Shown one piece after another: positions 1 to 18,987 of a stretch of 51,991 nucleotides of DNA (positions are counted from its first letter, which is position 1; each line of letters begins with the position of its first letter). The notes beneath the pieces are model-generated. The model was not told where the DNA came from. It was given only the letters and a program-made list of their open reading frames with translations, and did no database searches. Source of the stretch: a virus (lineage: Duplodnaviria > Caudoviricetes). A program made the translations under genes and the position numbers. The stretch is taken from positions 1 through 51,991 of the IMG/VR virus record IMGVR_UViG_3300042340_000122, one strand, 5' to 3'.

Positions 1-922
1 CCTGAACGTCCGGGGCCTGAACTCCCTGCGTATAGATATTTCCACCCTGCACAGTCGGGGTCTTGGGACTTGCACCCAAGAGAGTAGCAACTCCCTGAGC
101 GGGGGCGTTGTACTGAAGCAATGCCTCGTTGGTCATTGCCTGACGTGCGTTCTGGGCAAGCTGAGCGTTCTGGAGTTCTTCCGAGATGATGCCCTGTCGC
201 GCCTGCTGTTGGACTTGGCCCTGCTGGAGTTGTTCAGCAATCGCTCGAGACCGTGCATCGGTTCCCAATCCATACATACGGGACTGTTCCTGCGCACCAG
301 CGCTCAGAGCATCCGCAGACAACCGCGCCATCTGTTCGTATTGCGAGCGGTTGAGACGGTCCATTTCTCCATTATAGGCCTCACCCGTGATGGGGAGGCC
401 CCGATTGGCGAGCATCTGCTGGGTGGCCCGCTGCTGGCTTTCAAACTCGGGGCGCATCAGGCTCATGCCGCGCTCAAACATGGCGTTCTGATAGCTATCC
501 CGATCAGCAGAGAAATCACCCGAGCCTGGAGCGTTCGGGACATTCGCCATGTTCAGCCCGTACATGTAGTCTGGGGCCCCGTTAAGGTCCAAACCAGTCG
601 TGTAGCCGGGGAGATTGGTGGGGAGGCCGAATGGGCCTGTGGGGACTGAACCCGCTAGCTGGGCTGCTGCATTACTCAGTGTTCCCTGCAATTGGGTCTG
701 GGCATCAAACGCGGCTTGCTGCTGGGGAGAGAGGCTAACCCTCTGCGCAATAGGAACGCCCTCGGAATCCTTATCGAACGTGATGTTACCGTAGGGCGTG
801 TATTGAGCGAGGTTGTTTAGCTTGGAGCTTTCCTTGGCAGACTTGATGTACGCATCCGCCTGCGCCTGACTGGTCTTGACTGGATCTGGCGCTGCGGGAG
901 CGCTACCGCTCGACTTACCCAA
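1..922 (-). CDS. Putative internal virion/DNA-ejection (pilot) protein, 3' partial
   Basis: Missing from the ORF track because it runs off the window. TTG start at 922 with AAGGAG SD; MGKSSGSAPAAPDPVKTSQAQ...QYTPYGNITF..., Gln/Ala-rich; follows nozzle and GNAT genes as in podoviruses. Confidence 0.75.
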   Translation of the reverse strand, partial: MGKSSGSAPAAPDPVKTSQAQADAYIKSAKESSKLNNLAQYTPYGNITFDKDSEGVPIAQRVSLSPQQQAAFDAQTQLQGTLSNAAAQLAGSVPTGPFGLPTNLPGYTTGLDLNGAPDYMYGLNMANVPNAPGSGDFSADRDSYQNAMFERGMSLMRPEFESQQRATQQMLANRGLPITGEAYNGEMDRLNRSQYEQMARLSADALSAGAQEQSRMYGLGTDARSRAIAEQLQQGQVQQQARQGIISEELQNAQLAQNARQAMTNEALLQYNAPAQGVATLLGASPKTPTVQGGNIYTQGVQAPDVQ

Positions 923-1391
923 CTTTGATCTCCTTGATCCACTTGCACTCGTCCTTCAGCATCCCGAGAACGAACGCATCATGCTTTCCGTCATACGCTT
1001 TGCGCGCCCTGCCTTCGATCCTGAAGCCAAGGCCCGTATTCAGTTTGATTGCTCGAGGGTTATTCTCCCCGATGATCAGTGTCATCCGCTCTAGCCCCTG
1101 TTGGACGAACGGATAGTGAAAAAGAGCCTTGAGAACACCCTTCCTGCACCACTTGGGGCTTGATGCAGCGAACGTCAGTTCGCAGTCGAATTGCCTCCAA
1201 CGGTGATAGACCGCCCCCGCTATGAGCTTATCCCCCTCGGATATGCCAATCGTTGTGAAGGGACCAAACTCCTCCACCCCCATCTTCTGGGGGAGAAGGG
1301 AGATCACGAATTCTGCGATCTCACAGTCTTTATTGAAAACGAGGTTTAGACGAGGCCGGCTGGTTTCATCACCATGCTTGAGGACCTCCAA
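915..1391 (-). CDS. GNAT-family acetyltransferase of the virion operon (start uncertain)
   Basis: LFHYPFVQQGLERM...NPRAIKLNTGLGFRIEGRARKAY GNAT motif; typical position after the nozzle gene; nearest in-frame starts are TTG 1391 or ATG 1283. Confidence 0.75.
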   Translation of the reverse strand: MEVLKHGDETSRPRLNLVFNKDCEIAEFVISLLPQKMGVEEFGPFTTIGISEGDKLIAGAVYHRWRQFDCELTFAASSPKWCRKGVLKALFHYPFVQQGLERMTLIIGENNPRAIKLNTGLGFRIEGRARKAYDGKHDAFVLGMLKDECKWIKEIKVG

Positions 1392-2884: not shown

Positions 2885-3214
2885 TTACTTCCTGCGCTTT
2901 CGATTCCGTTTGGCCTCGCTGGCTGGGTAGTCACCAGTAGCGGCCCCAATTATGCCTCCAGCCGTAGTCATGGCGACTGGCGGAAGGATTCTCATCCCCT
3001 CGTCAAACTTTGGCTTAAATCGCCTGATTGCCCCGCGCCCCGCGCCGTAAGCCAAAGCACCAAGCGCTCCGCCAGCAAGCGTCCTCATGCCAGAGTTGAA
3101 CTCTTCATCCTTTAGCGCGCGCTCCAGTTTCTTTTGCTCCCTTCGGCTCCGAAAAGAGTCCTGTTCGTCAAGCGCTTTATCAAAGATGTCCCGATTGTCT
3201 TCTTTCTTCGCCAT
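2885..3214 (-). CDS. Small tagged glycine-zipper protein
   Basis: MAKKEDNRDIFDKALD tag, two Gly-rich hydrophobic segments, KRNRKRRK tail. Confidence 0.8.
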   Translation of the reverse strand: MAKKEDNRDIFDKALDEQDSFRSRREQKKLERALKDEEFNSGMRTLAGGALGALAYGAGRGAIRRFKPKFDEGMRILPPVAMTTAGGIIGAATGDYPASEAKRNRKRRK

Positions 3215-3217
3215 AGC

Positions 3218-4327
3218 CTATTTCCTTCTTTTTGGTGCGTTTACGATGGCGTCTTCAATGTCATCGCGTACCGATGCTGTCTTGGGTGTCGTTCCCTTTG
3301 GAAGATCAAAGGGCTTGCGGGGCTTCTTGGGAGGGCGGGGGTTTTCCCACGGCTCGACTGGCTTGCGAGGTGTTACCTTCGCACCCGTTGTCTCTGCTGG
3401 TTTGGCAAACATGCGCTTGATCGCACTGCCCGCCTTTGAAATCACTGGAGCCAAAATCCCACCTCCGATTGCACTTGCTGCCGCGAACGGTGCGATGGAT
3501 TCATCGTCCATCACCGCCTGCGCGCGTTTATCAAACCCACCCTCGGCCTCGCCTGCATCCATGATTGCAAGCGAACCTGCACCAGTGCCAGCAAAACTTG
3601 CTGCACCCTCAGCGGCTCTACCTGCCCCCGTGGCAGCCTCTGCAGGAAGCCCAATCACACGACGCCCGCCCTTGATAACCTTGTCCACGCCCTTTGTAAG
3701 CCCGGAGAAGATGGGGCCTCCAGAGAGAAGGCCTGCCGTGGTCCCCACCACACTGCGGGGGGAAAATGGAGCTTCGTATTGCGCATCTTCTTCCTTGATG
3801 CGACGGGCTTCTTTCAGGTTATCGTCGTATGAGCCTTGACCTGTGATGGCACCCGCTCCAGCCACCACCTCATCATCAAACCCGAGAAGCGGCCATGAGA
3901 GACCATTGAGTATCATTGCCTGATACTTTTCGTTCTCAGGGCGGGGGTCATTCTCATCCGCGTCCGCCATCTGCCAAGTTTCCGGAATCTCAGGCAGGAA
4001 CCATGACATATCGGGGTTGCCGTCCTTGTTGGACTGCTCCCACTTCTTCTTTCTGTATTCGTAAGAGGAACTATCATCAGCGTAGGGATCTTCGTACCCC
4101 ATCCCCTGAAGAACGCTGGACCACCACGACCTGTTATCCTGGTCCGGGTTGTTGGCGTAGTACGTTTCCTTCCGTTCCTTCATGGAGGCTTGGGTAAAGG
4201 GAAGATCAGCGTCGGTAATGGTTCCGTCCTGATACTTCTTGTAGAGAACCCTTGCCTCTTCCGGATGCTGCTCCGCCCACTGGGCGATCTGTTCTTCGCG
4301 CGAGAGTGAGGGCGGTCTGTACGGCAT
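3218..4327 (-). CDS. Paralog of the N-terminal domain of the ejection protein at 47766-49925
   Basis: ILNGLSWPLLGFDDEVVAGAGA vs ILNGLDNALFGFGDEVVAAGGA; MPY start; C-terminal SVRDDIEDAI...KRRK. Confidence 0.75.
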   Translation of the reverse strand: MPYRPPSLSREEQIAQWAEQHPEEARVLYKKYQDGTITDADLPFTQASMKERKETYYANNPDQDNRSWWSSVLQGMGYEDPYADDSSSYEYRKKKWEQSNKDGNPDMSWFLPEIPETWQMADADENDPRPENEKYQAMILNGLSWPLLGFDDEVVAGAGAITGQGSYDDNLKEARRIKEEDAQYEAPFSPRSVVGTTAGLLSGGPIFSGLTKGVDKVIKGGRRVIGLPAEAATGAGRAAEGAASFAGTGAGSLAIMDAGEAEGGFDKRAQAVMDDESIAPFAAASAIGGGILAPVISKAGSAIKRMFAKPAETTGAKVTPRKPVEPWENPRPPKKPRKPFDLPKGTTPKTASVRDDIEDAIVNAPKRRK

Positions 4328-4339
4328 CTACCCTACCCT

Positions 4340-4711
4340 CTAACGACGACGCGGCTTCTTGCGACGCGGCTGCTTGGGAATGACGATCTGGTACTGGCCG
4401 TCCTTGCGCAGCTTGAAAATCACGCCGTCATCGCGACGCATGTGCATTCGGCTGTTGTAGGATAACTGCCACGTTCCAGACCGTTCACTCCACGTGACAG
4501 GTTCGTATGTGCGACCTTCGCTGTCACGGTAGCGCTTAATCTCGCCGCCAAATGTGCGTTCAGGATAAATCTTGACGACCTTGGTCTGGATCTTGGGGCT
4601 CTTCTTTTTCTTTCCAAAGAAACTGGCCGGACCCTTGGCCCCCGTTGAGGCTGCTTTTGTTGTTGTAGATTTTATCGCGCGCTCAAGCGCAAAGCGAACC
4701 CCACTCGGCAT
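4340..4711 (-). CDS. Basic hypothetical protein with N-terminal VRFALERAI helix
   Basis: Fits the tightly packed operon; Lys/Arg-rich. Confidence 0.65.
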   Translation of the reverse strand: MPSGVRFALERAIKSTTTKAASTGAKGPASFFGKKKKSPKIQTKVVKIYPERTFGGEIKRYRDSEGRTYEPVTWSERSGTWQLSYNSRMHMRRDDGVIFKLRKDGQYQIVIPKQPRRKKPRRR

Positions 4712-4714
4712 GGC

Positions 4715-5200
4715 CTAAACTCCTGAATAGTCTTTGTAGAAGAATTGCTTTGGATCAACGGAGCGATTGTCTTTCCGCATCCCGAAGTGAAGGTGAGGGC
4801 CGGTGCTCCTGCCCGTCGTGCCGACATAGCCGAGGATGTCTCCCCGCTTGACCTCGCCGCCCCTCAATCCCTTCTCAGAGACCTTCTTCATGTGAAGGTA
4901 GCGGGTCTGATACCCGTCCGGATGTTTCACTGTGACCTTGTATCCACCAACTGGGTCCGGGGTATTTCCATCCACCCATCCATCTTCGGATGCATAGATT
5001 GGAGTGCCAGGGGAAGCGGCGTAATCAATGCCCTCATGAAGCATTGGCTTCTTCAGGATCGGATGCTCTCTCATGCCATACGGGGAAGAAACGAAGGAAT
5101 CATCGCGAATGGGAACATCCAGATCGGGAGATCCCTTCTTCATCATGGCTTTGACAAAACGCTCACGCGCCGCTCTGGCCTTGATCCCGTTGTATGGCAT
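4715..5200 (-). CDS. M23-family zinc metallopeptidase (peptidoglycan endopeptidase)
   Basis: HEGID and HLHF zinc motifs, YLHM, GTTGRSTGPHLHF; no signal peptide. Confidence 0.92.
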   Translation of the reverse strand: MPYNGIKARAARERFVKAMMKKGSPDLDVPIRDDSFVSSPYGMREHPILKKPMLHEGIDYAASPGTPIYASEDGWVDGNTPDPVGGYKVTVKHPDGYQTRYLHMKKVSEKGLRGGEVKRGDILGYVGTTGRSTGPHLHFGMRKDNRSVDPKQFFYKDYSGV

Positions 5201-5203
5201 GGG

Positions 5204-5494
5204 TTATTTCCGGCGCTTCTTGCCAGCCGGCATCCCGCCCATCTTCTGCCTTGCCACTTCGGCGCCGACCATTCCAATTGCGGCACCAGTTCCGCCGCCA
5301 AGAGTGCGCGCTCCAGCGTTCAGATCAAAATCCCTAAAGGTCCGCTTTGACTTGCCAAACTTGCCCCCGGTAAGACGCGCGCCTAAAGCGCCACCAGCTA
5401 GAGCGCCGACCGTGGTAAACAGCTGCTCGTCATCAAGAATTTTTTCGAACACGTCGCGGTTATCTTCTTTCTTCTTTGCTTTCTCTTTAGCCAT
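5204..5494 (-). CDS. Small tagged glycine-zipper protein
   Basis: KKEDNRDVFEKILDD tag; GALAGGALGA and GGGTGAAIG; KKRRK tail. Confidence 0.8.
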   Translation of the reverse strand: MAKEKAKKKEDNRDVFEKILDDEQLFTTVGALAGGALGARLTGGKFGKSKRTFRDFDLNAGARTLGGGTGAAIGMVGAEVARQKMGGMPAGKKRRK

Positions 5495-5507
5495 TGTACT
5501 TCTCCTG

Positions 5508-5951
5508 TTACCTGCGGCCTCGAGCGGCCTCGCGCTTCATGCGCCCCTCCATGTACGCCTTCTTCAGCATCTGGCCGAAGGGGGTGTTTCCATAAGGGCC
5601 TTCAATGATGGGGCGGATGGCATCGTCGTCGCCATTTACCCCTGCCTGATAAGCCCCCTGGATCATGCGGTCATGCTCTGCGGGGTCTTCAAACACTCCC
5701 GGAAACGCTTCATCCTGAGCTGGGCCTTCACCCGTGCGCTGACGGTTGAAACCGTCCACCGTTGGCTCTCCCGTCTCATAGGGCATCCCCGGGCGCACAC
5801 GCCTTGCACTGGCAGCAGATGGGCCAAAAGACGGGCCCTGAGGCTGGGCGGCGTAGTTCTCCATGCCCATCTCCCCACCTTCACCACCCTCACCGCCTTC
5901 AATTGCGGCGTAAATATCGTCACGCACTGACGGTGGGCGCTTCATTTTCAT
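5508..5951 (-). CDS. Hypothetical protein with N-terminal SVRDDIYAAI helix
   Basis: Operon packing; CAGGA SD-like sequence upstream. Confidence 0.7.
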   Translation of the reverse strand: MKMKRPPSVRDDIYAAIEGGEGGEGGEMGMENYAAQPQGPSFGPSAASARRVRPGMPYETGEPTVDGFNRQRTGEGPAQDEAFPGVFEDPAEHDRMIQGAYQAGVNGDDDAIRPIIEGPYGNTPFGQMLKKAYMEGRMKREAARGRR

Positions 5952-5967
5952 GTCTGTTTTTCCTGAA

Positions 5968-6324
5968 TTACTTACGAGTTTTTCTTACATAATCTCCGTA
6001 TGCGGCCCCTGCGCCAGCACCAACGCCGGCCCCAGCCAAACTTGCCCCCCTCAATGGGGCATCAATAAACTGCTCTTTGTTTTGTATGTCATTACGCTTT
6101 AGATTCTGTCTAACAGTTGGAGATTTTCCCTTGGAGTAACTCTTTGACTCGGCCAAAAGTTCTTTTCCATAGCGAACAGAATCTCTCGTTTTTTTTGAAA
6201 ACGCTTTTTTTATTGCACGCCCCCCAAATCTTCCAACAACACCACCAACCACAAGCCCGCCAGCGGGGCCAAGGTCATCAACAATCTTGTCGAACACGTC
6301 GCGGTTGTCTTCTTTCTTTGCCAT
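5968..6324 (-). CDS. Small tagged glycine-zipper protein
   Basis: MAKKEDNRDVFDKIVDD; GGLVVGGVVG and GAGVGAGAGA; RKTRK tail; GGAG SD. Confidence 0.8.
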   Translation of the reverse strand: MAKKEDNRDVFDKIVDDLGPAGGLVVGGVVGRFGGRAIKKAFSKKTRDSVRYGKELLAESKSYSKGKSPTVRQNLKRNDIQNKEQFIDAPLRGASLAGAGVGAGAGAAYGDYVRKTRK

Positions 6325-6326
6325 GT

Positions 6327-7025
6327 CTAACTCCAAGTTCCTTCAGGAATCCTGCCGCGCCCCAACCCCTGGAGCGTTGGGCCTACTGCATTGAGTTTGC
6401 GCCTCGTTCCATCGCGCGCAATGATCTTTGACTTTTCACGCTCGTACTCATCAAAGCGCTGCGTGTAGTCGAGACCCTTTGCCTCCAACCAGCGCCAGAC
6501 AACGCCGAGGGTCAGGAGGTGCTCGGATATCCTCCCCGTATCGCTATCAGCCGCCCATGCAGATTGGGCAGTTCCACCAGACGATTGGCACCATTTGTTG
6601 CTTACGTACTCGTAGTAGATGGATTGGCCGGCGGTTGGGGTCGGGAGGAAGTAAAACGAATTCCCCCTGATCCGGTATTGGCTCCAGACGGTTGAAACCA
6701 CCTGAGCCTTCTGCGCCTGCCAGCTTTGGGATGTGAGGGGTCCATAGACTGGATCAGTTGTTGACCTATTCCACAGCGTCTCGTTGATGATGCGGTCCAG
6801 GTCTGTCGGAAGCGTATGGCTGGTCTGCTCTTCCGTCGCCACTGTCGTGAACGAGGTTTCAGTCACCAAAGCCTGCCAGTCATGCTCACGCATCAACACA
6901 TCCCCGGTCATGTTGCTCAGGGCGAGGAGTTGTCTCTGCGTCTCTCCCGTGTTGCTGTAGACCGTGGTCGTGACAGGCAAGTTCAACATTGCCTGTGCAC
7001 GGTTTATGATGGAGAGCAAAGACAC
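6327..7025 (-). CDS. Head-to-tail adaptor (tail tubular protein A-like)
   Basis: MSLLSIINRA...HDWQAL...LPTDLDR...LTLGVVWRW...KGLDY pattern typical of podovirus adaptors. Confidence 0.7.
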   Translation of the reverse strand: MSLLSIINRAQAMLNLPVTTTVYSNTGETQRQLLALSNMTGDVLMREHDWQALVTETSFTTVATEEQTSHTLPTDLDRIINETLWNRSTTDPVYGPLTSQSWQAQKAQVVSTVWSQYRIRGNSFYFLPTPTAGQSIYYEYVSNKWCQSSGGTAQSAWAADSDTGRISEHLLTLGVVWRWLEAKGLDYTQRFDEYEREKSKIIARDGTRRKLNAVGPTLQGLGRGRIPEGTWS

Positions 7026-7028
7026 TGG

Positions 7029-7289
7029 CTAGCCTCCACGCGGCTTCGGAAACAGCGCCTTGCGGAGAGGATTGTTCGCCTCCAGCGCCTTTTCGAACAC
7101 GTCGCGCGTATCAAGGGGATTTACTACCTTGATGGGCTTGCGCATCGGTCCGGTCTTCTGAGAGGGGCGGTACGGCATGGTCTTGGCCGTTCCACCCATT
7201 CCCGGCTTATAGGGCATCGTTTTGGTCGTGCCCGTCCCCGGCTTGTACGGCATCTTGGCGTAATCGCCGGGTCGCATTGTGTTGGCCAT
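7029..7289 (-). CDS. Small basic protein with 3x MPY[KR]P repeats and C-terminal DTRDVFEKAL tag
   Basis: ATG at 7289 just after the upstream stop at 7294; tag motif. Confidence 0.75.
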   Translation of the reverse strand: MANTMRPGDYAKMPYKPGTGTTKTMPYKPGMGGTAKTMPYRPSQKTGPMRKPIKVVNPLDTRDVFEKALEANNPLRKALFPKPRGG

Positions 7290-7293
7290 GTTC

Positions 7294-7647
7294 TTACGAA
7301 GCCACGGTAGGAATGGTGTGGCACGCCGTACCGCTCGAGAAGAACACCACAACGCTCTTGGCCGTCGCCATGGAAAGCGACGTGGTGGCGTTGATGGTCG
7401 CACCCGTGGGCGGGTAGAGGGTCAAGGTCGATCCGCTTTCATTCTTGATGAGGTAGGTGTCGCCCTTGTCCGAAGCCGGCAGGATCATCCCGCCTGATCC
7501 GGATGCCATAAGGACCAACTCACCCGTGATCTTTGCCGCATCCGTGGCGCTCGATCCCGCTGCCGCGAGGGACTGAACCTCCCCAACCGTGGCAACTGCC
7601 TGAAGCGCCGAAACGCCCGAGTTCATCAACTTCTTCTGCCTAGCCAT
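7294..7647 (-). CDS. Putative virion structural protein
   Basis: Ala/Ser/Thr-rich, 117 aa, in the head cluster. Confidence 0.6.
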   Translation of the reverse strand: MARQKKLMNSGVSALQAVATVGEVQSLAAAGSSATDAAKITGELVLMASGSGGMILPASDKGDTYLIKNESGSTLTLYPPTGATINATTSLSMATAKSVVVFFSSGTACHTIPTVAS

Positions 7648-7653
7648 ATTACT

Positions 7654-8283
7654 TTACTCCTTCGCCTTCCTGGCTCTTGGTTCAACCGTGGTTTCGGATT
7701 CTCGGTCCTTAACCGCTTGCACAAGCTGTTCCATCTGGTTCTGCATGAGCTCCAGACGCTGCTTCAGTTCCCTGTTTTCCACTTCGAGTTTGGCAATCGG
7801 GGCCGCGCTCTTTGCACTTTCGATAAATGCCTTTGCCTTCTCGCGCATATCGCGCAGGCCAATGGCCCCAGGCTTGGAAATCGAGCTATCGCTCAGTGCG
7901 GCTAGCTGCTGGACAGTGAACACGTTCATGTACTCCAGAGCCTTGGCCATCTCGGTCGGGATTAGCGGCCAGAGGGAAAGGGGAATTCCATCTCCAATCA
8001 TGTCCGGATTGATGCGCTTGGACTTCCACATCGCGTATTCATTGGGAAACTGGTCCTTGACGCCCTGCGTCACGCGCTTGACGGGAGAGTTTCCCTTGTC
8101 CCCTGCGATCAGGAGTTCGACAAACTCAATTGTGCGAAATACGGGGAGCCCATTCTCATCAATCTCGTTGGTCTTCTTTGTTTCTTCAAAGAAGCGCGGC
8201 GTGATGTGCGCCATGTTGTCCTTCTTCGGCATTCTCTGCTGAAGAGCGACGCGGTCGTGCAATTCCATATTGTCAAAAGACAT
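7654..8283 (-). CDS. Phage hypothetical protein with C-terminal coiled coil
   Basis: 209 aa; GIPLSLWP...FTVQQLAALSD; SD present. Confidence 0.65.
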   Translation of the reverse strand: MSFDNMELHDRVALQQRMPKKDNMAHITPRFFEETKKTNEIDENGLPVFRTIEFVELLIAGDKGNSPVKRVTQGVKDQFPNEYAMWKSKRINPDMIGDGIPLSLWPLIPTEMAKALEYMNVFTVQQLAALSDSSISKPGAIGLRDMREKAKAFIESAKSAAPIAKLEVENRELKQRLELMQNQMEQLVQAVKDRESETTVEPRARKAKE

Positions 8284-8344
8284 TGGATCTTCCTTCTGTA
8301 CTTTAAGACTTCCGCCGGAATTGGCGGAGTGGTCTTGAGGCTAG

Positions 8345-8524
8345 TTAAATGCGAAAGACCTTCTCGAACACATCGCGTGTGTCTTGGTCTGGGGTGGGGG
8401 CGATAATCAGTCGCCGCCTCTCACGCAGGATCTGGTCCGGCCCTGATTCAATGGGTGGTCTTGGCTTTGGTCTTGGAGCAGGAACCGGACGCTTGGGCGC
8501 GGGTTTCTTCGGAGCCTGTTTCAT
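8345..8524 (-). CDS. 59-aa Pro/Lys-rich protein with C-terminal DTRDVFEKVF tag
   Basis: Translated manually (below the ORF-track cutoff): MKQAPKKPAPKRPVPAPRPKPRPP...DQDTRDVFEKVFRI. Confidence 0.75.
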   Translation of the reverse strand: MKQAPKKPAPKRPVPAPRPKPRPPIESGPDQILRERRRLIIAPTPDQDTRDVFEKVFRI

Positions 8525-8527
8525 GTG

Positions 8528-8782
8528 TTACTTGCGGCGCTTACTTTTGTTGATGTCATTTTTGATTGCCGCGCCAGCAAACCCGCCTGCCGTTGCGCCA
8601 TACATTCCGGCTAATCCTGCCTGTGCGGCAGATGAAGTTCTACCGCTACCCTCACTCCTGCCAATTTTGTACATCTTGCGTCCAGCAAGCGAGCCACCCA
8701 GCACGGCTCCAATTAATGGAGCGTTGTCCAATGCTTTTTCAAAGATGTCTCGATTGTCTTCTTTGCGCTTTTTCTCAGCCAT
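8528..8782 (-). CDS. Small tagged glycine-zipper protein
   Basis: MAEKKRKEDNRDIFEKALD; GAVLGGSLAG and GMYGATAGGFAG; KSKRRK tail. Confidence 0.8.
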   Translation of the reverse strand: MAEKKRKEDNRDIFEKALDNAPLIGAVLGGSLAGRKMYKIGRSEGSGRTSSAAQAGLAGMYGATAGGFAGAAIKNDINKSKRRK

Positions 8783-8787
8783 AACCT

Positions 8788-9042
8788 TCACCTTTCAATC
8801 TCGGGAGAGCCGACAACCACCTGCGTCGCAGGTCCACGCTGCGCCCACTCTCCGCACCACTCGGCCTCTTTTGTCCAAGGCCATGAACCCACCCAGATAT
8901 CCCGCTTGGAATCTATGCAGCGGGAAGACGTTTCCGGCTTTCCAACCCGGCACCGCCCCCACTTGATGGATTGGATATCTACCTTTTCATTCCCCCAATA
9001 ACGGCAGGATGAGCAGTTTTCTGACATCGCTATATCCCTCAA
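8788..9042 (-). CDS. Small Cys-rich hypothetical protein
   Basis: CSSCRYW...GRC...WP.T...WCGEW pattern. Confidence 0.6.
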   Translation of the reverse strand: MRDIAMSENCSSCRYWGNEKVDIQSIKWGRCRVGKPETSSRCIDSKRDIWVGSWPWTKEAEWCGEWAQRGPATQVVVGSPEIER

Positions 9043-11177
9043 TGTGAAAGCCGACGCTCGGCCTCGTCTGCATACTCAAGGGGCGCGAACACATCGTCGC
9101 GCATCAGGCGTGCGATCTTTCGATACCCGTGCTCCGCCATGAACGAGGGAAGCATTCCTTCCGAGCCTGAAAGGCCATCAAGGCCCTTGTTCTCACAGAC
9201 AATCAGGGGCCTGTTGATCTTCACTGTCTCGGATGCCCCATACAGAGCCGGACCTTCCATCCCCTCAATATCAAGGTAGATGAGGTCAACGTTTTGGGGT
9301 CCGAGATGGTCAATCACTATTACCGGAATTGTAGGAACTCCATCAAGGTCAATCCCGATCGACCCTGTGTTGTTCTTGTCCCGAACCGAGAGGGCGATCT
9401 TTCCCTCTTCATTCCCGATAGCGGCCTGATGAATAGTGACGTTATCTGCCCTCACATTCCGAACCAGGCACTTGAAGTTGGTGGGGTCAGGCTCAAACGT
9501 CCATACATCGTCAAACACGAGTGACATTGTATTTGCGAATATTCCAACATGCCCACCGGCTTGAATTGCTGTCCTGCGCTTACCCTCCGGAAGAGCATCC
9601 ACAACCCGCTTGATCTTCCAGACTTCATCCAGAACGGCGGGGACGGATACGCGGTCTTCTACCGGACGCCATAACTCATCAAAGAGAACGATATCGCCCT
9701 CGACAACGCACGGTTTGTTTCTCTCTTCGGCGAGTTTCTGAGATACCCAACCGAGGAGACCGGAGCAATGCACATGGATCTCACAATCCATGCGAGCCAG
9801 CTCATCAGAAAGCCCCATGAAGTCCTCAACCTGCCGGATCATCCAGCTAGCGGCTTTGAACTTTCGACCTTCCACATTCACATCAATCCGCGCATCCCGG
9901 TCATTCTCGGGCTGTGAATAGGCGTGGTGGTCCATGTCCTCGAAGGATGAATCCATGCCGAAGATATGGATGGTTCTGAACCCAAGCGCATAGGCTCCAC
10001 ACAGGGCTTTCATGCCTACTGTGGTTCCGCCTCCAACCAAGGTGTATTCTTTGTCTTTAGGCAGAAACTCATCGCACGTGGCTTCGTGCCAGAGGATGAT
10101 GTCCCTACCCTTAGCTGCCTCGAACACTGACGGATGACATTGGGAGGCGATATAGTGCGTCCACTCACCCCCACAGAACCGGGCGTTCACATCTCGAGCG
10201 TCTACGATCCATTGCCCGTCTACCTCAATACCGTTTTCGGTAAGGTAGTGAGCCGCGCCATTCAGAGCCCAGATAACTTGGCCCGCTCTGGCGCGCAGTT
10301 TCAGTTCTTCAAGGTTATGCTTGAGAGATGGGCCACCGCCCACAATGCAGACTGATTTATCGTTTGCTTCCGTCTGCTTCAGTTCGGGTAAGCCCAAACC
10401 CAAAGCGTGAGATACATTCGCCCTCAGTGCATCCATCTCGGTATTGCACCGAACGAGGATCTCAAGAGAACCTACCCCACCGATCTTCCACACATCCGGA
10501 ACCCATCCGAAGTGCACATCGTGCGGCCTTGGTTCCCCGTGAAACACAACAACGCGCGATCCCTTGGGTGGATACTTCTGGCAATGAACCTTGTAGCTCA
10601 CAAAGGATTCGGGAAAGAGGCTTTGGAGACTGTCGGGATTAGATCTCTTTTCGATCCAGGATTGATCTCCGCCCAAGTCATGGGTTGGATATCCCGCAAT
10701 TCGATACTCTTCCCATAGGTGAGTTCCGAACCCGGCTTTCCATGTCATCACTGAGGACTGAAACCCGCCCGGGCGATAGAAATCATCCAGCATGGCAAAT
10801 TCACTCGAACACTGAACGATCTCATCCAGAGCGGAGAGGACCAGCGTGTCCAAGTCAAAGAATACAATTCGGTCTCCAGAGGGAAACAGGCCGGGCGAGA
10901 AAAGCCATAACTTGTTCCACCAGCCCTCCAGTCCGTCTGGGAGAGGTCTTGTGACTACTCCTTCCGAATACCCCAAGTCAGGATCATCGGTGAAGCAGAC
11001 GAATTCACCCTCGGTTCCTTCCGCCAGATTGCGGATGACCATATCGTGTAACTTGTTGACGTACTCAGCCCCCCGGCCAAGGTAGTTACCCTTCTGCACG
11101 CAGACGATGTGAAGCATGTAGTGTTCCGGAGGGAGGAAAAGAGAGGGGCGAGCCTCATGACCCGCCCCGTTACTCAA
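9039..11177 (-). CDS. Three-domain protein: GT-A glycosyltransferase + DUF115/MptE-like domain + FkbM-family methyltransferase
   Basis: GWWNKL, FFDLD (DxD), GGDQ, VFHGEPRP; VCIVGGGPSL...GMDSS; QAGGHVG, FEPD, LDIEGME. Confidence 0.78.
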   Translation of the reverse strand: MSNGAGHEARPSLFLPPEHYMLHIVCVQKGNYLGRGAEYVNKLHDMVIRNLAEGTEGEFVCFTDDPDLGYSEGVVTRPLPDGLEGWWNKLWLFSPGLFPSGDRIVFFDLDTLVLSALDEIVQCSSEFAMLDDFYRPGGFQSSVMTWKAGFGTHLWEEYRIAGYPTHDLGGDQSWIEKRSNPDSLQSLFPESFVSYKVHCQKYPPKGSRVVVFHGEPRPHDVHFGWVPDVWKIGGVGSLEILVRCNTEMDALRANVSHALGLGLPELKQTEANDKSVCIVGGGPSLKHNLEELKLRARAGQVIWALNGAAHYLTENGIEVDGQWIVDARDVNARFCGGEWTHYIASQCHPSVFEAAKGRDIILWHEATCDEFLPKDKEYTLVGGGTTVGMKALCGAYALGFRTIHIFGMDSSFEDMDHHAYSQPENDRDARIDVNVEGRKFKAASWMIRQVEDFMGLSDELARMDCEIHVHCSGLLGWVSQKLAEERNKPCVVEGDIVLFDELWRPVEDRVSVPAVLDEVWKIKRVVDALPEGKRRTAIQAGGHVGIFANTMSLVFDDVWTFEPDPTNFKCLVRNVRADNVTIHQAAIGNEEGKIALSVRDKNNTGSIGIDLDGVPTIPVIVIDHLGPQNVDLIYLDIEGMEGPALYGASETVKINRPLIVCENKGLDGLSGSEGMLPSFMAEHGYRKIARLMRDDVFAPLEYADEAERRLSH

Positions 11178-11181
11178 GTGC

Positions 11182-11688
11182 TTACGTAGCTGTTTCGATA
11201 GCCGGGCGGTTGATAAGCACCGTCACGGTCGAAGTAGCCGAGGCCACCGTGGTCAGGTTGGCAGAGCGAGCGCCAACAATGCCCTTGCCCGTGGAGGCAG
11301 TGGCATAGACGCGACCAGCCGTGCCCGACAGCCACAAGCCGGAAGATGGCGAAACCGCCACCGCCGTCTTCTTGATAACTGCCATACCCGAGATCTGATA
11401 CCAGCCGTACTGGCTGGCAACGTTCGCCGACATGGCAACCGCGAGCGGAGCACCGTCCGTGGTGGCGTTGGTCGGAGACAGGGTGGTCTGGAAGGTTGTG
11501 GCGCTGTAGGTAACGAGCGAACCCACTACCGTTGAGGCAACGCCCAGCAGGTAGATGAATTCACCGCCACCGCCGCCCGTGGCCGTGTCACGCGCGCGGA
11601 CGATAGTGCCGAGCGGGTGGTTCTGCACCGTGTCGGTCGCGGCGATCAGCTGCCCGCCGATGAGTGGATCAGTTACAATATAAGGCAT
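11182..11688 (-). CDS. Putative capsid decoration/cement protein
   Basis: 168 aa, Ala/Thr/Gly-rich, GEFIY...YGWYQISG; follows the capsid gene. Confidence 0.6.
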   Translation of the reverse strand: MPYIVTDPLIGGQLIAATDTVQNHPLGTIVRARDTATGGGGGEFIYLLGVASTVVGSLVTYSATTFQTTLSPTNATTDGAPLAVAMSANVASQYGWYQISGMAVIKKTAVAVSPSSGLWLSGTAGRVYATASTGKGIVGARSANLTTVASATSTVTVLINRPAIETAT

Positions 11689-11699
11689 TGAGCCCTCCT

Positions 11700-11724
11700 A
11701 AAAGAAAAGGGCCCCAAAGGGCCC
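11700..11724 (-). terminator. Intrinsic terminator downstream of capsid/HNH genes
   Basis: GGGCCC-TTTG-GGGCCC followed by TTTTCTTTT on the minus strand. Confidence 0.7.
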
Positions 11725-11728
11725 GTTG

Positions 11729-12370
11729 TCATGAAGAGCCGCGCCTGGTTCTTGGCGCGACCGGAGTTGTAAGAGTTCTTTCGACCGTCCATCCCTTACT
11801 GAGACGCCATCCAATGTGTTTGGATGGTATCCCAGTTCGGTCGGCCCAATCTGCCCACGACAATGTTGCGCCGTTCCACTCAAGCATTGGAGTATTCCGC
11901 TTGTTTCGCTGCTGGCCACTTCTCGTTGACCACCTGCAATTTTCTGGGCCGTAGTTTCCGTTGACATCCGTTCTATCAAGGGACGAACCTTCCGGTCGCT
12001 GCCCCATGTCAGAAACAAACGCATCGTAACTAGCGACCCATCGCGGATCGACACGAATTCCCCGTCCACCGTATCGCCAATAATCTGGCGAATTCGGGTT
12101 CAGGCATCGCTGCAGCATCGACTCCCAAGACTTGAATGTCTTGGTTCCTGTTTGGCCATGAAGTGTGACCTGCTCTTTGTGGTAGCAGCCACACGACTTG
12201 CTTTTTCCAGATGTCAGGCTCCCTGCTTTCACAAGGCGCTTTGTGCCGCACGAACAGGTGCATGGCCAGCAGATTTCTCCACGGGCATTTGCCTCTGTCG
12301 GCCCTTCTCCAACAGTCCACCTACCGAAGATTTGTCCGGTCAGGTTTAGCTTGTGCTGTGATCTAGCCAT
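11729..12370 (-). CDS. Free-standing HNH homing endonuclease
   Basis: WPCTCSCG, SCGC, YGGRGI, LDRTDVNGNYGPENCRW...QQRN; GGAGG SD before ATG 12370. Confidence 0.85.
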   Translation of the reverse strand: MARSQHKLNLTGQIFGRWTVGEGPTEANARGEICWPCTCSCGTKRLVKAGSLTSGKSKSCGCYHKEQVTLHGQTGTKTFKSWESMLQRCLNPNSPDYWRYGGRGIRVDPRWVASYDAFVSDMGQRPEGSSLDRTDVNGNYGPENCRWSTRSGQQRNKRNTPMLEWNGATLSWADWADRTGIPSKHIGWRLSKGWTVERTLTTPVAPRTRRGSS

Positions 12371-12391
12371 TGACGCCTCCAAAGAAGCGCC

Positions 12392-12420
12392 AATGTACTA
12401 AATCACTGAACTATACGCAA
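12392..12420 (-). promoter_or_regulatory. Sigma70-like promoter for the HNH gene
   Basis: TTGCGT-17nt-TACATT; overlaps palindrome GCAACGAT-C-ATCGTTGC (12417-12433). Confidence 0.55.
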
Positions 12421-12436
12421 CGATCATCGTTGCACA

Positions 12437-13402
12437 TCAGGCCACTATGACGCCCTGCAACGAGCGGTTGCTGCAGGTCAAATTTCCCGCCCACCCAATA
12501 AGTTTCACCATCGCATCCTGGTTCACGCTAAACCGATCCGCGCCCATCGGAACCATGTTACGGTCACGATGCGGGCGGAACTTGATGTAGTTCGTGTTCA
12601 GGAAGTACATGTGAGCGCTCGGAGCGGTGCCCGAGAAACCACCATCGTACACAACATCCGCGCCCATGAACTTCAGGGTCTGGAAGCCGGCAGATGCCAT
12701 CTTCTCATCGGTCACGCGCTGGATGGCCTGAAGGGACTTCCAGTAGTAACCGAAATACGTGTTGTCCGCGACGATGAGGTCGGGAACATCACGGTTGCGG
12801 GAGATGGAGAGGTACAGCGAGTTCATCGCGTCCTGGATCGTCAGGGCAGAAGCCGCAACGCCATTGGCCGAGAAGTCATACACCGCGTTCTGCCAGAAAG
12901 AGTACGTGGAGGAGTTGATGCCACCCACCGTGCCCGTACCAGCGTCCGAGACCAGAAGCTGCAGACCACCGATCTGCTTGCCCCCTGTTCCCGTCCCATC
13001 CGAATAGACGCCCGTGCTGAGGTTGTTTAGCATGGTCTTTTCGGCGTTCTTGATGCGGGATTCGAGGAGGTCGATAACCTTCTCACGACCCGAGTTCTTC
13101 AGAAGCTCAAGACCGTTGATCTTGACGGCAACAGCCGCCTGCTTCCACTCGTACTCTGCCGAGGTGAAGACATCCGAACTTGCGACGTTCAGAGTTTCAT
13201 CGCCGGAGTAGTACATGAACGTCGAGTTTTCTGCGTACTCGAGTTCTTCCACGATGGATCGACCACCGGAAACCGGGGCGATGTTTTCCTTGTCCTGAAG
13301 GCGGGACAGGAGAGCAATGTTCTTCGACATGTTGTCACGGAGCTTGCCGCTGCGATAGCGCAAGGTGGTCGTGACGATTTCGTCCAAACCGGGACTAGCC
13401 AT
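12437..13402 (-). CDS. Major capsid protein
   Basis: 321 aa directly after the scaffold; TTTLRYRSGKLRDNMSKN...YSDGTG.GGKQIGGL...YFLNTNY...GNLTCSNR. Confidence 0.88.
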   Translation of the reverse strand: MASPGLDEIVTTTLRYRSGKLRDNMSKNIALLSRLQDKENIAPVSGGRSIVEELEYAENSTFMYYSGDETLNVASSDVFTSAEYEWKQAAVAVKINGLELLKNSGREKVIDLLESRIKNAEKTMLNNLSTGVYSDGTGTGGKQIGGLQLLVSDAGTGTVGGINSSTYSFWQNAVYDFSANGVAASALTIQDAMNSLYLSISRNRDVPDLIVADNTYFGYYWKSLQAIQRVTDEKMASAGFQTLKFMGADVVYDGGFSGTAPSAHMYFLNTNYIKFRPHRDRNMVPMGADRFSVNQDAMVKLIGWAGNLTCSNRSLQGVIVA

Positions 13403-13429
13403 TTTGTTACCTCATTGATGATTGTTGAA

Positions 13430-14500
13430 TCAGAGAAGACCGGATGAGGACGCTTCAAGAAGCTGCCTCAAGTTCATCCCCTCGGCTGATTGCTCGCCGT
13501 ACATGCCTGACGCTCCACTTATGCTTGATGCCGCCATGCGGGCCTCCTCGGCTCTCATCCTCTGGGAGCGGTTTTCCCGGGCTCGGGATTGCGCCAGAAG
13601 TTTCGAGCGTGTGTAGGGATTGGCCCACTTGGCTCTCTCATAAGCCTCGTGGATGGTCGAAGCGCGTCCTGACTCGATTTCAATCGCCATATCTTCTTCA
13701 AGTTCATTGAAGTATGGATAGGCAGGCTTTCCATCTGGTCCGGTCTGGCTTGCGAAATTCTCAATATTCTCATTCGTTACATTGAACGCCTGAGCATACT
13801 GTTGTTGCTGCTGCAACTGCTGCGCCTGCTGTTGCGCCTGCATGGTTTGGTTCAGTTGGGCCTGAACGCCTGCAAGGTGCTGACGCAGCGTAGCGACTTG
13901 CGGATCGACGTATTCTTCCTCCTGACGCTGGTTCAGTTGGTTGAGGTCAATGCCGCGAAGATTGGAGAAATACTGGATAAACTCTATCGGGGAGTTTGTT
14001 GCGTAGTCGGAGAGGGCGATAAGCTGCTGCATGGCTTGGGCCGGGCCCATGCCGTTCAACGCCCACTTCTGGACATGAGGGGAAATAACCCGCTCCATCT
14101 CCTGATAGCCCTGGCGAACCTTGGCTATCTCCTGTGTCTTGCGTGTGTAGTCCGCCATCATGTGACGGGCTCGGTCGAGGTAAGCGTGCTGTAAGGCAGG
14201 GGGCAATTCCTTGAAGAACTGCTGCTCCTGCTGCGGCCAGTTGGCGGGCGGGTCAATGGGGCCTAGTTGGTCCTCATCGTCCTCTTCCTCGTCACCTTCC
14301 TCGTCTACCTCTTCCCCGTCTTCGTCGTCCTCATCGGAAGCGTCGAGTTCTTCCTCGCCCTCTTCCTCTAGGTCGTCTTCCTCAGTTTCGAATTCATCTT
14401 CGTCATCCGGGTTTTCGATTTCCGGGGCGAAATTGTCGTCGTCGCCTCCCAGAACGTCAACTTCTTCCGTGGCGTCGTAACTGTCGCGCGGACCTGCCAT
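13430..14500 (-). CDS. Capsid scaffolding protein
   Basis: Very acidic N-terminus, DYTRKTQEIA scaffold motif, Q-rich coiled coil, upstream of the capsid gene. Confidence 0.82.
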   Translation of the reverse strand: MAGPRDSYDATEEVDVLGGDDDNFAPEIENPDDEDEFETEEDDLEEEGEEELDASDEDDEDGEEVDEEGDEEEDDEDQLGPIDPPANWPQQEQQFFKELPPALQHAYLDRARHMMADYTRKTQEIAKVRQGYQEMERVISPHVQKWALNGMGPAQAMQQLIALSDYATNSPIEFIQYFSNLRGIDLNQLNQRQEEEYVDPQVATLRQHLAGVQAQLNQTMQAQQQAQQLQQQQQYAQAFNVTNENIENFASQTGPDGKPAYPYFNELEEDMAIEIESGRASTIHEAYERAKWANPYTRSKLLAQSRARENRSQRMRAEEARMAASSISGASGMYGEQSAEGMNLRQLLEASSSGLL

Positions 14501-14571
14501 TTTGTATTCTCCATGTCACGGGGTTTGGGTTACCCGGTAATCCCTGTCGCGTATGCGACCTGCGAACTTGT

Positions 14572-14889
14572 TCAGCCCTTGTAACGATGCTCTTCCATGG
14601 CCCGCACGATGTCGTGCACGGGGTTGGAAGGCGGGATGTATTTCTGCTGGACGTTCTCGTTTCCAACCTCAACCAGCCCTCTGGATTTGAGGAAGTCGCG
14701 ATGCTGTTTCCTTCCCCCGATGACGGACCCATCCACCACTGACTTGTAGGGATCGATGTCCTTCACGATCTGGAGTCCGATCTTGTCTTCGCCCTTGCGC
14801 TTTCGATAGTGATCCATGCACGCCGAGGGCCAAGGTTCCTCAAGGTCATGCCATCCTTTGCACACGTCGCAGTGTCTGGCTCTCGCCAT
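14572..14889 (-). CDS. Hypothetical head-cluster protein
   Basis: DIDPYKSVVDGSVIGGRKQHRDFLK...EVGNE, located before the scaffold. Confidence 0.65.
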   Translation of the reverse strand: MARARHCDVCKGWHDLEEPWPSACMDHYRKRKGEDKIGLQIVKDIDPYKSVVDGSVIGGRKQHRDFLKSRGLVEVGNENVQQKYIPPSNPVHDIVRAMEEHRYKG

Positions 14890-15167
14890 TATTTGCGCCT
14901 CTTTTTTCTTTCTTCGCTTCTCGTTTCACCGACATACCCAACTGGAAGACCAGCCATTCCGCCAGCCATTGCTCCCTTAAATCCTTCGTCCCCATACACT
15001 TTGCGGCCCGCTAGTTTTTTGGCTTTTCTAAATGCCCGGCCAGCAAGGCCACCAACAAGCATGCCGCCAATCAACGATGTGGGTCCGTTGACATACCCGC
15101 TATCAAGAGCCTTATCGAAGATATCGCGCGTATCTTCCTTGGCTTTGTACTTTTCTTGCTTACCCAT
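14889..15167 (-). CDS. Small tagged glycine-zipper protein
   Basis: KEDTRDIFDKALD; GGMLVGGLAG and GAMAGGMAG; RKKRRK tail; AGGAG SD. Confidence 0.8.
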   Translation of the reverse strand: MGKQEKYKAKEDTRDIFDKALDSGYVNGPTSLIGGMLVGGLAGRAFRKAKKLAGRKVYGDEGFKGAMAGGMAGLPVGYVGETRSEERKKRRK

Positions 15168-15176
15168 TTCTTTCTC

Positions 15177-15743
15177 CTATGCTGTGAGTAGGATCGTAGT
15201 GATCACCATCTCTTCTTCCTGCCGCTCTATCTTTCGTGCCCTGTCTTCGTATTCCTGGAGCAACCGGGCCAGTTTCTCCTGAGATGCCTTGTCCTCTGCC
15301 GCCTTCAGTTCATAAGCAACGCGAACCAACTGAATTCGCATTTGCTCGAGAGGGGCGAGTTCAATCTTGACCGCCGCCGGGAATGCCGGCCAGAAATCAA
15401 AGGCGGGGCGGATGATCTCCGCCACCTTCCTCGCAACCTTCTTCCGCTTCCTCTTGTCCTTTGCGGACGTGAGGTCGGTCAGCGCCTTGCGTATCGTGTT
15501 TCTAAGCTCGCCCCGGTACTTGCCCCTGTACCAGTGAGCGGCTCCGCCTCCCCCGGTAGATTGGGAAGGTGCCTCAATGACCACTTGGCCGTGATCTATG
15601 TAGGATAGAGAACCCGTTAGTGAAGATGTGGCCGTGAGTGAGGCCGACATTGCATTTGGATCTGCACTGCCACCCTGAAAGTATCTCTCCGGGAAATACC
15701 GCGCGGGGAAATACGTGTCAGGGAAATGATCCCCGCCGCTCAT
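15177..15743 (-). CDS. Hypothetical virion-associated protein
   Basis: FPxxYF repeats at the N-terminus, basic/coiled-coil C-terminus; coupled to the upstream gene. Confidence 0.6.
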   Translation of the reverse strand: MSGGDHFPDTYFPARYFPERYFQGGSADPNAMSASLTATSSLTGSLSYIDHGQVVIEAPSQSTGGGGAAHWYRGKYRGELRNTIRKALTDLTSAKDKRKRKKVARKVAEIIRPAFDFWPAFPAAVKIELAPLEQMRIQLVRVAYELKAAEDKASQEKLARLLQEYEDRARKIERQEEEMVITTILLTA

Positions 15744-18985: not shown

Positions 18986-18987
18986 AA

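Follow-up and report, generated by a model that had tools for sequence, protein, structure and literature searches.

A short terminal helix on at least eleven virion-module proteins of an uncultured Mx8/P22-type podophage: a candidate procapsid-incorporation signal

Introduction

In phage P22, the C-terminal end of the scaffolding protein binds the coat protein, and we know of no sequence-defined portable tag for the P22 ejection proteins gp7, gp16 and gp20; how minor and ejection proteins are selected into P22-type podophage heads is poorly defined at the sequence level. The capsid targeting sequence (CTS) of phage T4 is removed by the prohead protease. Among T-even phages, the internal proteins share only such a targeting sequence (PMC3012670). 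The last 16–21 residues of the phage 80alpha scaffolding protein (SP) form an amphipathic helix plus a hook on the N-arm of the capsid protein, and the SaPI1 protein CpmB copies them; the same source alludes to coat binding by the P22 scaffold end (PMC5644958). Encapsulin targeting peptides, which may be C- or N-terminal, dock in a lumen pocket of a shell with the HK97 fold (PMC8229669). The subject of this report is a short terminal peptide motif encoded repeatedly in the IMG/VR record IMGVR_UViG_3300042340_000122 (51,991 bp; the whole stretch was analysed and is called the window), which is the genome of an uncultured Mx8/P22-type podophage.

At least 11 accessory proteins of the virion module carry, within about 30 residues of a terminus, a short amphipathic helix of the form R-D-x-hydrophobic-x-x-A-hydrophobic with an N-cap. 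Two forms of this helix can be told apart: flavour T, EDNRD[IV]F[DE]KALD, whose core RD[IVL]F[DE]K we call the strict tag, and flavour S, S-V-R-D-D-I-x-x-A-I. We give an even chance to the reading that these helices are procapsid-incorporation signals that reuse the docking helix of the scaffolding protein.

In the 80alpha SP/CpmB pair, the copied helix uses the scaffold's site on a capsid protein of the HK97 fold (PMC5644958). Here too a scaffold-end motif recurs on other proteins, a 369-amino-acid (aa) and a 147-aa protein. We note three differences from that pair. First, there are about 11 bearers here rather than one, and either terminus is used rather than the C-terminus only; the extreme C-terminal helix-plus-hook placement is not what is found, the motif being N-terminal in eight of the 11 supported bearers and C-terminal in three. 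Second, the sequences are SVRDDIxxAI or EDNRDIFDKALD here and RIIK there. Third, CpmB belongs to a satellite and redirects capsid size, whereas the bearers here are the phage's own and their presumed purpose is loading (PMC5644958).

The likeness to the T4 CTS lies in a short conserved terminal peptide on plastic, multi-copy, small basic proteins (PMC3012670), whereas the CTS is N-terminal only and directs proteins to the scaffolding core; the present tag is also found C-terminally, and in a P22/Mx8-type podovirus. Six of the eight strictly tagged bodies are, unlike CTS proteins, paralogs with glycine zippers and a second conserved end, KRRK. Also unlike T4, Pfam and PHROGs scans of virion-module proteins detected no family of prohead proteases. 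With encapsulin targeting peptides the motif shares its use at either end (PMC8229669), whereas the consensus is another one, encapsulins have neither scaffold nor packaged DNA, and the motif here is common to the scaffold. The window is no encapsulin locus: it is the whole genome of a tailed phage and encodes terminase, portal, scaffold and tail proteins. The virion plan is that of P22, with genes for terminase, portal, scaffold, coat, tail tube and internal proteins (PMC10386132). Finally, the PF13488 and PF05433 (SlyB/Pcp-like) families also have repeated GxxxG/A segments predicted as paired helices; the proteins described here differ in having no lipoprotein signal, low hydropathy, a place in the virion module and two conserved termini. 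Text searches of the literature for the motif strings returned unrelated papers and no phage paper, and a search combining glycine zipper, ejection protein and phage returned none. Terminal targeting peptides and scaffold-end mimics are already known as a kind; what is new is the sequence, its use at either terminus, its presence on a dozen proteins of one genome, and the additional conserved end together with the P22/Mx8-type podophage setting.

Occurrence of the strict tag

The six-frame scan of the window for RD[IVL]F[DE]K gave exactly eight matches, all on the minus strand, which are N-terminal in six small proteins (s1–s6) and C-terminal in two others (c7 and c8; coordinates in Table 1). 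A first-pass annotation of this DNA had listed eight small tagged open reading frames (ORFs) with these termini, and the scan returned every one of them and nothing else. When the profile of 190 family tags was run on the six-frame ORFs of six genomes, 17 matches were obtained at 17.4–33.1 bits, with the next best at 3.6 bits. Eight of these are in the window, five in the related record G001 and four in the related record G002, and no match was obtained in the cultured relatives ppBjS10J-1, Mx9 and BUCT555.

Across the 190 members the tag logo reads K-E-D-N-R-D-[IV]-F-[ED]-K-A-L-D, and the third position of the tag, which is N, T, D, S or G, reads as a helix N-cap residue. An AlphaFold2 model of s4, at a modest predicted local distance difference test score (64.6), places helices at residues 10–19, which are the tag, 21–40 and 52–81. 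The DNA copies of the tag agree at codon positions 1 and 2 and differ at position 3, and the DNA upstream is unconserved; the motif is conserved solely as protein, which bears out the earlier statement of protein-level conservation. Shine-Dalgarno sequences precede the six N-tagged genes, and the two C-tagged genes begin 4–5 nt past the upstream stop codon.

Assignment of all copies to the virion module depends on how the record was opened. ORF 2..922 runs over the end of the record and stops just before 51923, with s6 (51597–51923) directly downstream; the record was thus opened inside a gene, and the linear record is therefore permuted or arbitrarily opened. The stretches 51924–51991 and 1–922 are both parts of this one cut gene. 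Provided that the record is circularly permuted, all eight strict tags lie within the virion module, and the earlier description of tagged genes slotted into the virion operon stands for eight of eight.

The first-pass annotation had also set, post hoc, a generalised pattern, R..phi..A-phi (phi, hydrophobic) within 30 aa of a terminus. This pattern occurs in 9/42 virion-module genes against 0.84 expected, a count reached by 0/500 shuffles, and in 2/44 genes outside the module against 1.31 expected; with the caveat that the pattern is post hoc, it is not equally frequent outside the virion module. Among the four neighbouring genes named on this basis, the 369-aa, 147-aa and 123-aa proteins gain support from homologs in other phages, whereas the M23 peptidase fits the generalised pattern only and has no independent support. 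The claimed family of about 12 thus becomes one of at least 11, and its description as a portable, position-independent tag agrees with a helix that may stand at the N- or the C-terminus and that is restricted to proteins of the virion module.

The tagged proteins

The six N-tagged proteins align over their full length: in each, the tag is combined with one or two glycine-zipper segments, and the chain finishes in exactly KRRK or KTRK. Their bodies had been described as otherwise divergent and the set as a variable repertoire; the alignment contradicts both statements, since the glycine-zipper segments and the KRRK end are shared and the set is mostly one paralogous family rather than diverse cargo. 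PF13488 gives 25.9 bits for s3 and 27.6 bits for s6 against a cut-off of 25, with the other four of the six below it or without a match, and PF05433 scores 16.4 against a cut-off of 24.2. A profile search of 1.84e9 representatives found at least 169 proteins (clusters at 50% identity) at E<=1e-3, and among the matches listed nearly all are 77–158 aa long and aligned over their full length; a second profile search gave 114 family matches. Their annotation offers no functional name, with a Pfam glycine zipper in two entries and an automatic SlyB label in one, and PHROGs contains no family for the eight small tagged proteins or for the 369-, 147- and 123-aa proteins. The tblastn search of s6 against 50,697 phage records gave nothing at E<=1, a weak negative, as a match of the motif alone is estimated to be unable to reach the threshold. 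A search of solved structures returned only chance-level matches to ribosomal P1 for the family, and only 6j3q (E=0.0028) for the capsid profile.

Over its 190 members the family has a median length of 109 aa and a median isoelectric point of 10.2, and its three C-terminal positions hold R in 77%, R in 89% and K in 92% of members, in this order. The codons of KRRK differ between the copies, and KRRK is therefore selected at the protein level. A role of KRRK as an overlapping ribosome-binding site for the next gene was considered and rejected, because the codons differ among copies. By a crude test, the maximum 19-residue Kyte-Doolittle mean, the median of the family is 1.19 and 4% of the 190 reach 1.6; the proteins therefore do not look like classical membrane helices.

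The last result bears on a quite different account of s1–s6, in which they are unpackaged late membrane-active proteins (holin- or antiholin-like, superinfection exclusion or moron products) and the helix is a cytoplasmic regulatory or oligomerisation element. Some properties would fit: the weak to borderline PF13488 scores in two of the six, the look-alikes in a protein atlas, which are glycine-zipper and small membrane proteins at a template modelling score of about 0.45–0.5 (below the bars of the tool), and the moron-like coming and going of the genes in relatives, described below. However, besides the low hydropathy, the proteins lack a signal peptide and a lipobox and have a strongly charged N-terminus, this tag also stands at the C-terminus of two Pro-rich proteins without a glycine zipper, and every copy lies inside the operon for head, tail and internal proteins. 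Candidates for lysis functions also lie elsewhere: 40904–41266 encodes a likely spanin (a weak Rz-like match to phrog_1152, E 1.1e-4), 41266–41505 has no family match and is a possible holin by sequence alone, and 44615–45121 matches a tail-lysozyme family. We therefore regard the membrane account as quite unlikely.

The two C-tagged proteins are Pro-rich and of another build (Table 1). The tag of c7 is DTRDVFEKAL, and the G001 ortholog retains it at the C-terminus; c8 has orthologs in G001 and in loci L005 and L008, and the G001 ortholog likewise keeps its C-terminal tag. At the position of c7, G002 has a gene whose product ends STVRDDLMKAIV; the sole BLASTP alignment between it and c7 sets the tag against this motif, at E=1.3, and the two are positional equivalents rather than demonstrable homologs.

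A conserved terminal peptide on variable Gly/Ala-rich bodies also resembles leader-guided modification, and the motif could then be a recognition peptide for a modifying enzyme (a 712-aa glycosyltransferase-methyltransferase, a GNAT protein or a protease) instead of a targeting signal. The glycosyltransferase-methyltransferase fusion is indeed encoded within the virion module, and G001, G002, G005 and G006 have it as well. Its homologs, however, are found in 32/78 loci without a strict tag, on which ground a link between tag and enzyme was rejected; the GNAT gene is kept in the tag-less Mx9, ppBjS10J-1 and BUCT555, no prohead protease was recognised in the Pfam and PHROGs scans of virion-module proteins described above, and the account leaves the motif at scaffold ends unexplained. 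We consider it highly improbable.

Flavour S and its exchange with flavour T

Flavour S was recognised on the larger accessory proteins encoded between s1 and s3 (Table 1). Homologs of the 369-aa protein keep the motif at the C-terminus in G001, G002 and G004, with the ends SVRGDIERAL...GRRR in G002 and TVRGDINRAL...GRRR in G004. The homolog of the 147-aa protein in record G003 (BLASTP E=1e-8) has the T-like RGRDIWDRV at the same N-terminal place. For the 123-aa protein, the G003 homolog (E=1e-7) has N-terminal SVRTAILKAL and, at its other end, a glycine zipper followed by SRRK, and the homolog in locus L053 has N-terminal SGVRKAIYKAI. Locus L053, whose capsid protein is 66% identical to that of the window, holds a block between the homologs of the tail protein and the 512-aa protein, and the proteins of this block have the form SGVR[KR]AIY[KR][AS][IL]...RKK.

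Bodies with glycine zippers and KRRK-type ends are combined with an S-type N-terminus in G002 (21936–22259), G003 (2268–2684) and L053. The G002 protein is a family body, with glycine zippers and KRRK, that carries an intermediate N-terminus, RSIREDIGKALEDAFDDP. Judged from these sequences, one terminus may carry flavour T in one phage and flavour S in another, among homologs or positional equivalents. In 4/190 family members, an S-like motif stands just upstream of the T tag, in tandem.

Scaffold ends

Scaffolds of the lineage were collected from 80 IMG/VR loci with relatives of the capsid protein at 53–98% identity, the scaffold being the ORF just upstream of the capsid gene; strict tags are found in 2/80 of these loci, both of the window's own clade. 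The scaffolds very often end S-[LIV]-R-[DE]-x-[LI]-x-A-A-hydrophobic (e.g., GSVRDDIRAAMESLGL, ASIRDDLTAALNAVGGRL and VSVRESLNDALKEARA). The pattern [VIL]R..phi..[AS]phi within the last ~28 residues is present in 25/61 scaffolds and in 16/2179 other same-strand ORFs of >=100 aa (Fisher p=2e-31), and many of the 36 scaffolds that it misses show variants by eye, such as SLRDELRANF and EDDIRAAF. At the N-terminus the pattern occurs in 16/61 scaffolds. Flavour S thus reads as the motif that ends, and often also starts, the scaffolding proteins of the lineage.

The helix was seen at both ends of the scaffolds of L033 (Mx9 p80, 18737–19837), L052, L055, L056, L084, L103, L127, L128 and others; in Mx9 the two ends read SLRGSLEAAM and SLRGTIEAAW. 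Such two-ended scaffolds suggest a bivalent cross-linker of capsid subunits.

A second, independently trained test used a scaffold-terminus model of 11 columns, made from 48 distinct C-termini (anchor in 57/60 scaffolds, the window's clade excluded). It was run on the window, G001, G002 and the three cultured relatives, which together gave 2807 six-frame ORFs and 317,144 residues. Ranks 1 and 2 went to the two ends of the Mx9 scaffold, which was absent from the training set. The top match in G001 is the C-terminus of the homolog of the 369-aa protein, and in G002 the terminal motifs of small virion-module proteins take ranks 1–5, 7 and 8. Within the 58,953 residues of the window, the C-terminus of the 369-aa protein ranks second and the N-terminus of the 147-aa protein fifth; of the others, the first seems to lie across longer genes read in a different frame, the third is internal and the fourth comes from an alternative frame of the 147-aa gene. 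The N-terminus of the 123-aa protein is not among the listed matches of the model.

The N-terminal part of the scaffold is distinctive in charge. Over the first 100 aa, the net charge is -47 in the window, -47 in G001 and -53 in G002, against -15, -7 and -7 in the three tag-less cultured relatives, and the window's tract has up to 31 D/E in 40 residues (at the 14500 end). The two most acidic of the 61 scaffolds, those of G001 (-47) and L053 (-38), belong to the two loci that hold glycine-zipper proteins with RKK ends.

Gene gain and loss among relatives

When IMG/VR was scanned with exact DNA patterns, 15 contigs beyond the window proved to contain the family, and three further matches were chance ones in unrelated proteins. 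At the E limit of each search, the family matches number five in G001 (52,330 bp, terminal repeats, 100% complete), five in G002 (34 kb), three in G003, two in G004, three in G005 (51.5 kb, complete) and three in a 4-kb fragment. The family-alignment search gave five viral loci; pattern matches were confirmed in 0/158 genome contigs and 2/334 metagenome contigs, by a tblastn confirmation against s1 that is insensitive for the family, and absence from prophages is not claimed.

G001 and the window are syntenic, but in G001 s1, s2 and s5 are missing from the corresponding places. The nearest relative of s5 is G001 24229–24498, with a local score of 170 against at most 86 for any other pair with a window copy, and this gene occupies the place of the window's 117-aa gene (7294–7647). 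The small tagged genes seem to move as cassettes. In Mx9, ppBjS10J-1 and BUCT555, no gene separates the homolog of the tail protein from that of the 512-aa protein, which comes next, whereas in the window seven genes stand between the two (2885–6324: s3, the 147-aa gene, s2, M23, the 123-aa gene, the 369-aa gene and s1). As the two flanking homologs are adjacent in the three cultured relatives, the block 2885–6324 is therefore an insertion. Six of its seven genes carry a supported motif, and the M23 peptidase shows the generalised pattern only.

Genome setting

Scans with Pfam and PHROGs place a podophage virion module on the minus strand (Table 1). The closest cultured relatives by capsid protein are Bradyrhizobium phage ppBjS10J-1 (57%), Myxococcus phages Mx9 (51%) and Mx8 (47%) and Stenotrophomonas phage BUCT555 (48%), and megablast of 2800–16000 against the 50,697 phage records gave no match. 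The gene order of the lineage is tubeA, tubeB, internal virion proteins and fibres, and internal virion protein genes are sometimes interspersed among tubeA and tubeB (PMC10386132). From this order and from synteny with Mx9, ppBjS10J-1 and BUCT555, 6327–7025 is probably tubeA and 1346–2884 tubeB/nozzle.

Table 1. Positions of the tagged proteins, the other motif bearers and the core virion genes in the window
Feature	Position	Strand	Remarks
Virus record	1-51,991		whole IMG/VR record, 51,991 bp; CheckV: 100% complete
512-aa protein	1346-2884	(-)	phrog_5107
s1, 109 aa	2885..3214	(-)	N-terminal tag KEDNRDIFDKALD, glycine-zipper segments, C-terminal KRRK; 30.9 bits
369-aa accessory protein	3218..4327	(-)	C-terminus ASVRDDIEDAIVNAPKRRK: S motif plus KRRK; RDDIEDAI
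123-aa accessory protein	4340..4711	(-)	N-terminus MPSGVRFALERAIKS, S-like (starts MPSGVRFALERAI); basic C-terminus
M23 peptidase, 161 aa	4715..5200	(-)	PF01551, 1.3e-28; N-terminal RERFVKAM, generalised pattern only, weak
s2, 96 aa	5204..5494	(-)	N-terminal strict tag, glycine zippers, KRRK; 28.6 bits
147-aa accessory protein	5508..5951	(-)	N-terminus PSVRDDIYAAIEGG, S motif (...PSVRDDIYAAI)
s3, 118 aa	5968..6324	(-)	N-terminal strict tag, glycine zipper (PF13488 over cut-off), KTRK end
Tail protein	6327-7025	(-)	phrog_6013; upstream boundary of accessory block 2885-6324
c7, 86 aa, Pro/Lys-rich	7029..7289	(-)	three MPY[KR]P repeats, strict tag near C-terminus; 20.5 bits
c8, 59 aa, Pro/Arg-rich, basic	8345..8524	(-)	strict tag at extreme C-terminus; 17.4 bits
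s4, 84 aa	8528..8782	(-)	N-terminal strict tag, glycine zippers, KRRK; 33.1 bits
Major capsid protein, 321 aa	12437-13402	(-)	phrog_9953, E=6.4e-112; presumed tag receptor
Putative scaffolding protein, 356 aa	13430-14500	(-)	basis: position just upstream of capsid gene
s5, 92 aa	14889..15167	(-)	paralog with N-terminal strict tag; nearest relative at a different G001 locus
Gp80-like fibre protein	18988-19398	(-)	PF23140
Portal, 850 aa	19404-21956	(-)	phrog_12082, E=9e-195, aligned residues 3-729
Large terminase	22992-24443	(-)
Small terminase	24424-24927	(-)
s6, 108 aa	51597..51923	(-)	paralog with N-terminal strict tag; next gene after the wrapped virion structural gene 2..922

Several neighbouring genes deserve mention. 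An HNH endonuclease gene (11729–12382, minus strand; phrog_374, E=8e-59) lies between the capsid gene and that of a 168-aa virion protein; these two are adjacent in G001, so it looks like a homing-endonuclease insertion. The 712-aa fusion protein (9039–11177, minus strand) matches a glycosyltransferase (phrog_1962) over residues 38–231 and a methyltransferase (phrog_8156) over residues 533–706. The portal, at 850 aa against 522–687 aa in the three tag-less cultured relatives, has a C-terminal extension of ~120 aa (19404–19850 region) that reads as helical and charged and may be reminiscent of the P22 portal barrel. Downstream of the Gp80-like fibre gene, the adjacent minus-strand genes 16559–17725 and 17725–18858 (388 and 377 aa, no Pfam or PHROG family) may encode further fibre components. 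Among 3218–4327, 4715–5200, 11182–11688 and 47766–49940, three virion-module proteins start with MPY. In the fourth, MPY stands at residue 6; translation may really begin there, because the G002 and G004 homologs start MPYIPK. Small Cys-rich proteins, which may be zinc ribbons, are encoded on the minus strand at 14572–14889 and 8788–9042, next to tagged genes; the product of 14572–14889 ends ...DIVRAMEEHRYKG, and its G001 homolog, fifth in G001 by the scaffold-end model, ends ...DIRRAMEEHRYKG.

Proposed mechanism and alternatives

We propose that the terminal helices dock, during procapsid assembly, at the site of the scaffold's own terminal helix and would thereby enclose the accessory proteins; by analogy with 80alpha and P22, this site would be the inner face or the N-arm of the capsid protein. 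The poly-acidic N-terminal tract of the scaffold would first neutralise the basic bodies and the KRRK tails, and DNA would do so later. The tagged proteins would remain in the head as the scaffold departs, and would exit with the DNA at infection; plausible candidates for acting on the envelope are the glycine-zipper helices and the M23 peptidase. In its full form, which we regard as possible but somewhat doubtful, the proposal is that this abundant uncultured lineage turned a scaffold docking helix into an address label, usable at either terminus, on about a dozen fast-turning-over internal proteins, whose KRRK ends and the acidic tract hand the cargo to DNA.

Several observations weigh against incorporation by scaffold mimicry. 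First, the 11-column model scores low (3–8 bits), so its weight rests on ranks rather than on E-values. Second, the strict T tag is not scaffold-like: the best model domain overlaps the tag in 11/190 members, and the median best score is -2.5 bits. Third, the window's own scaffold, which ends ...NLRQLLEASSSGLL (LRQLLEAS; that of ppBjS10J-1 ends ...EIRQLMDASV), is outside the best 70 matches of the scaffold-terminus model and outside the best 60 of the tag model. The first-pass annotation had taken LRQLLEAS as a looser version of the tag, whereas this terminus is not detectably similar to either flavour; since it is unlike the S motif, the capsid groove of the clade may have diverged from that motif. 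The mimicry itself thus holds in part, for flavour S, where a model of foreign scaffolds picks out the ends of the 369-aa and 147-aa proteins, and fails for flavour T and for the window's own scaffold end. The earlier claim that the tag copies the helix of this phage's own scaffold therefore has indirect backing, from flavour S and from the exchanges between S and T. Fourth, the acidic scaffolds of L124 (-36) and L062/L063 (-29) have flanks without such proteins or tags, and G000, G001, G002 and G005 form one clade, which makes the co-occurrence of acidic tract and tags approximately one independent event. Fifth, capsid binding by the scaffold ends of the lineage would follow by analogy, and the tandem S and T motifs in 4/190 members could mean different partners. 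Docking at the capsid, presence in the virion, the role of charge and ejection are steps that we infer. Prediction of a complex between capsid protein and s4 scored 0.00 in two runs without controls, and weighs neither way.

The first two of these points, and the post hoc origin of the generalised pattern, would suit an account without any common function, in which the tag is the N-terminus of one paralogous family, two genes gained it by recombination and the loose matches are convergent helices. This account is very unlikely in our view: diverged homologs differ in the flavour of the motif but keep it at one terminus, the scaffold-end enrichment has p=2e-31 (as above), in three genomes the independently trained model gives its top ranks to the ends of small virion proteins, and the intermediate RSIREDIGKALEDAFDDP sits on a family body.

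The remaining alternative keeps the assembly role and changes the receptor: the helices may be handles that bind the scaffold body, the portal or one another, giving an internal core or ejection complex instead of coat-bound cargo. The T4 sequence targets proteins to the scaffolding core and not to the shell (PMC3012670), the portal is longer than in the three cultured relatives without tags, the motif at both scaffold ends could equally mean scaffold-to-scaffold contacts, and the tandem members suggest two partners. However, twelve portal sites are few for at least 11 tagged protein species, and the best-studied mimic of a scaffold terminus binds the capsid protein (PMC5644958). We consider a receptor other than the coat unlikely.

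Implications

If procapsid incorporation by these helices is correct, the window would encode a system, natural and defined by sequence, by which a scaffold-dependent tailed phage loads cargo into its capsid, and the lineage scaffolds with the motif at both ends would be bivalent cross-linkers of capsid subunits. The repertoire under the address label would comprise basic glycine-zipper proteins, Pro-rich peptides and a block that holds a peptidase. A tag of 10–12 residues common to scaffold ends would make the selection of head proteins in P22-type podophages directly testable. It would also explain the cassette-like gain and loss of accessory internal proteins and would offer a handle for loading foreign proteins into capsids.

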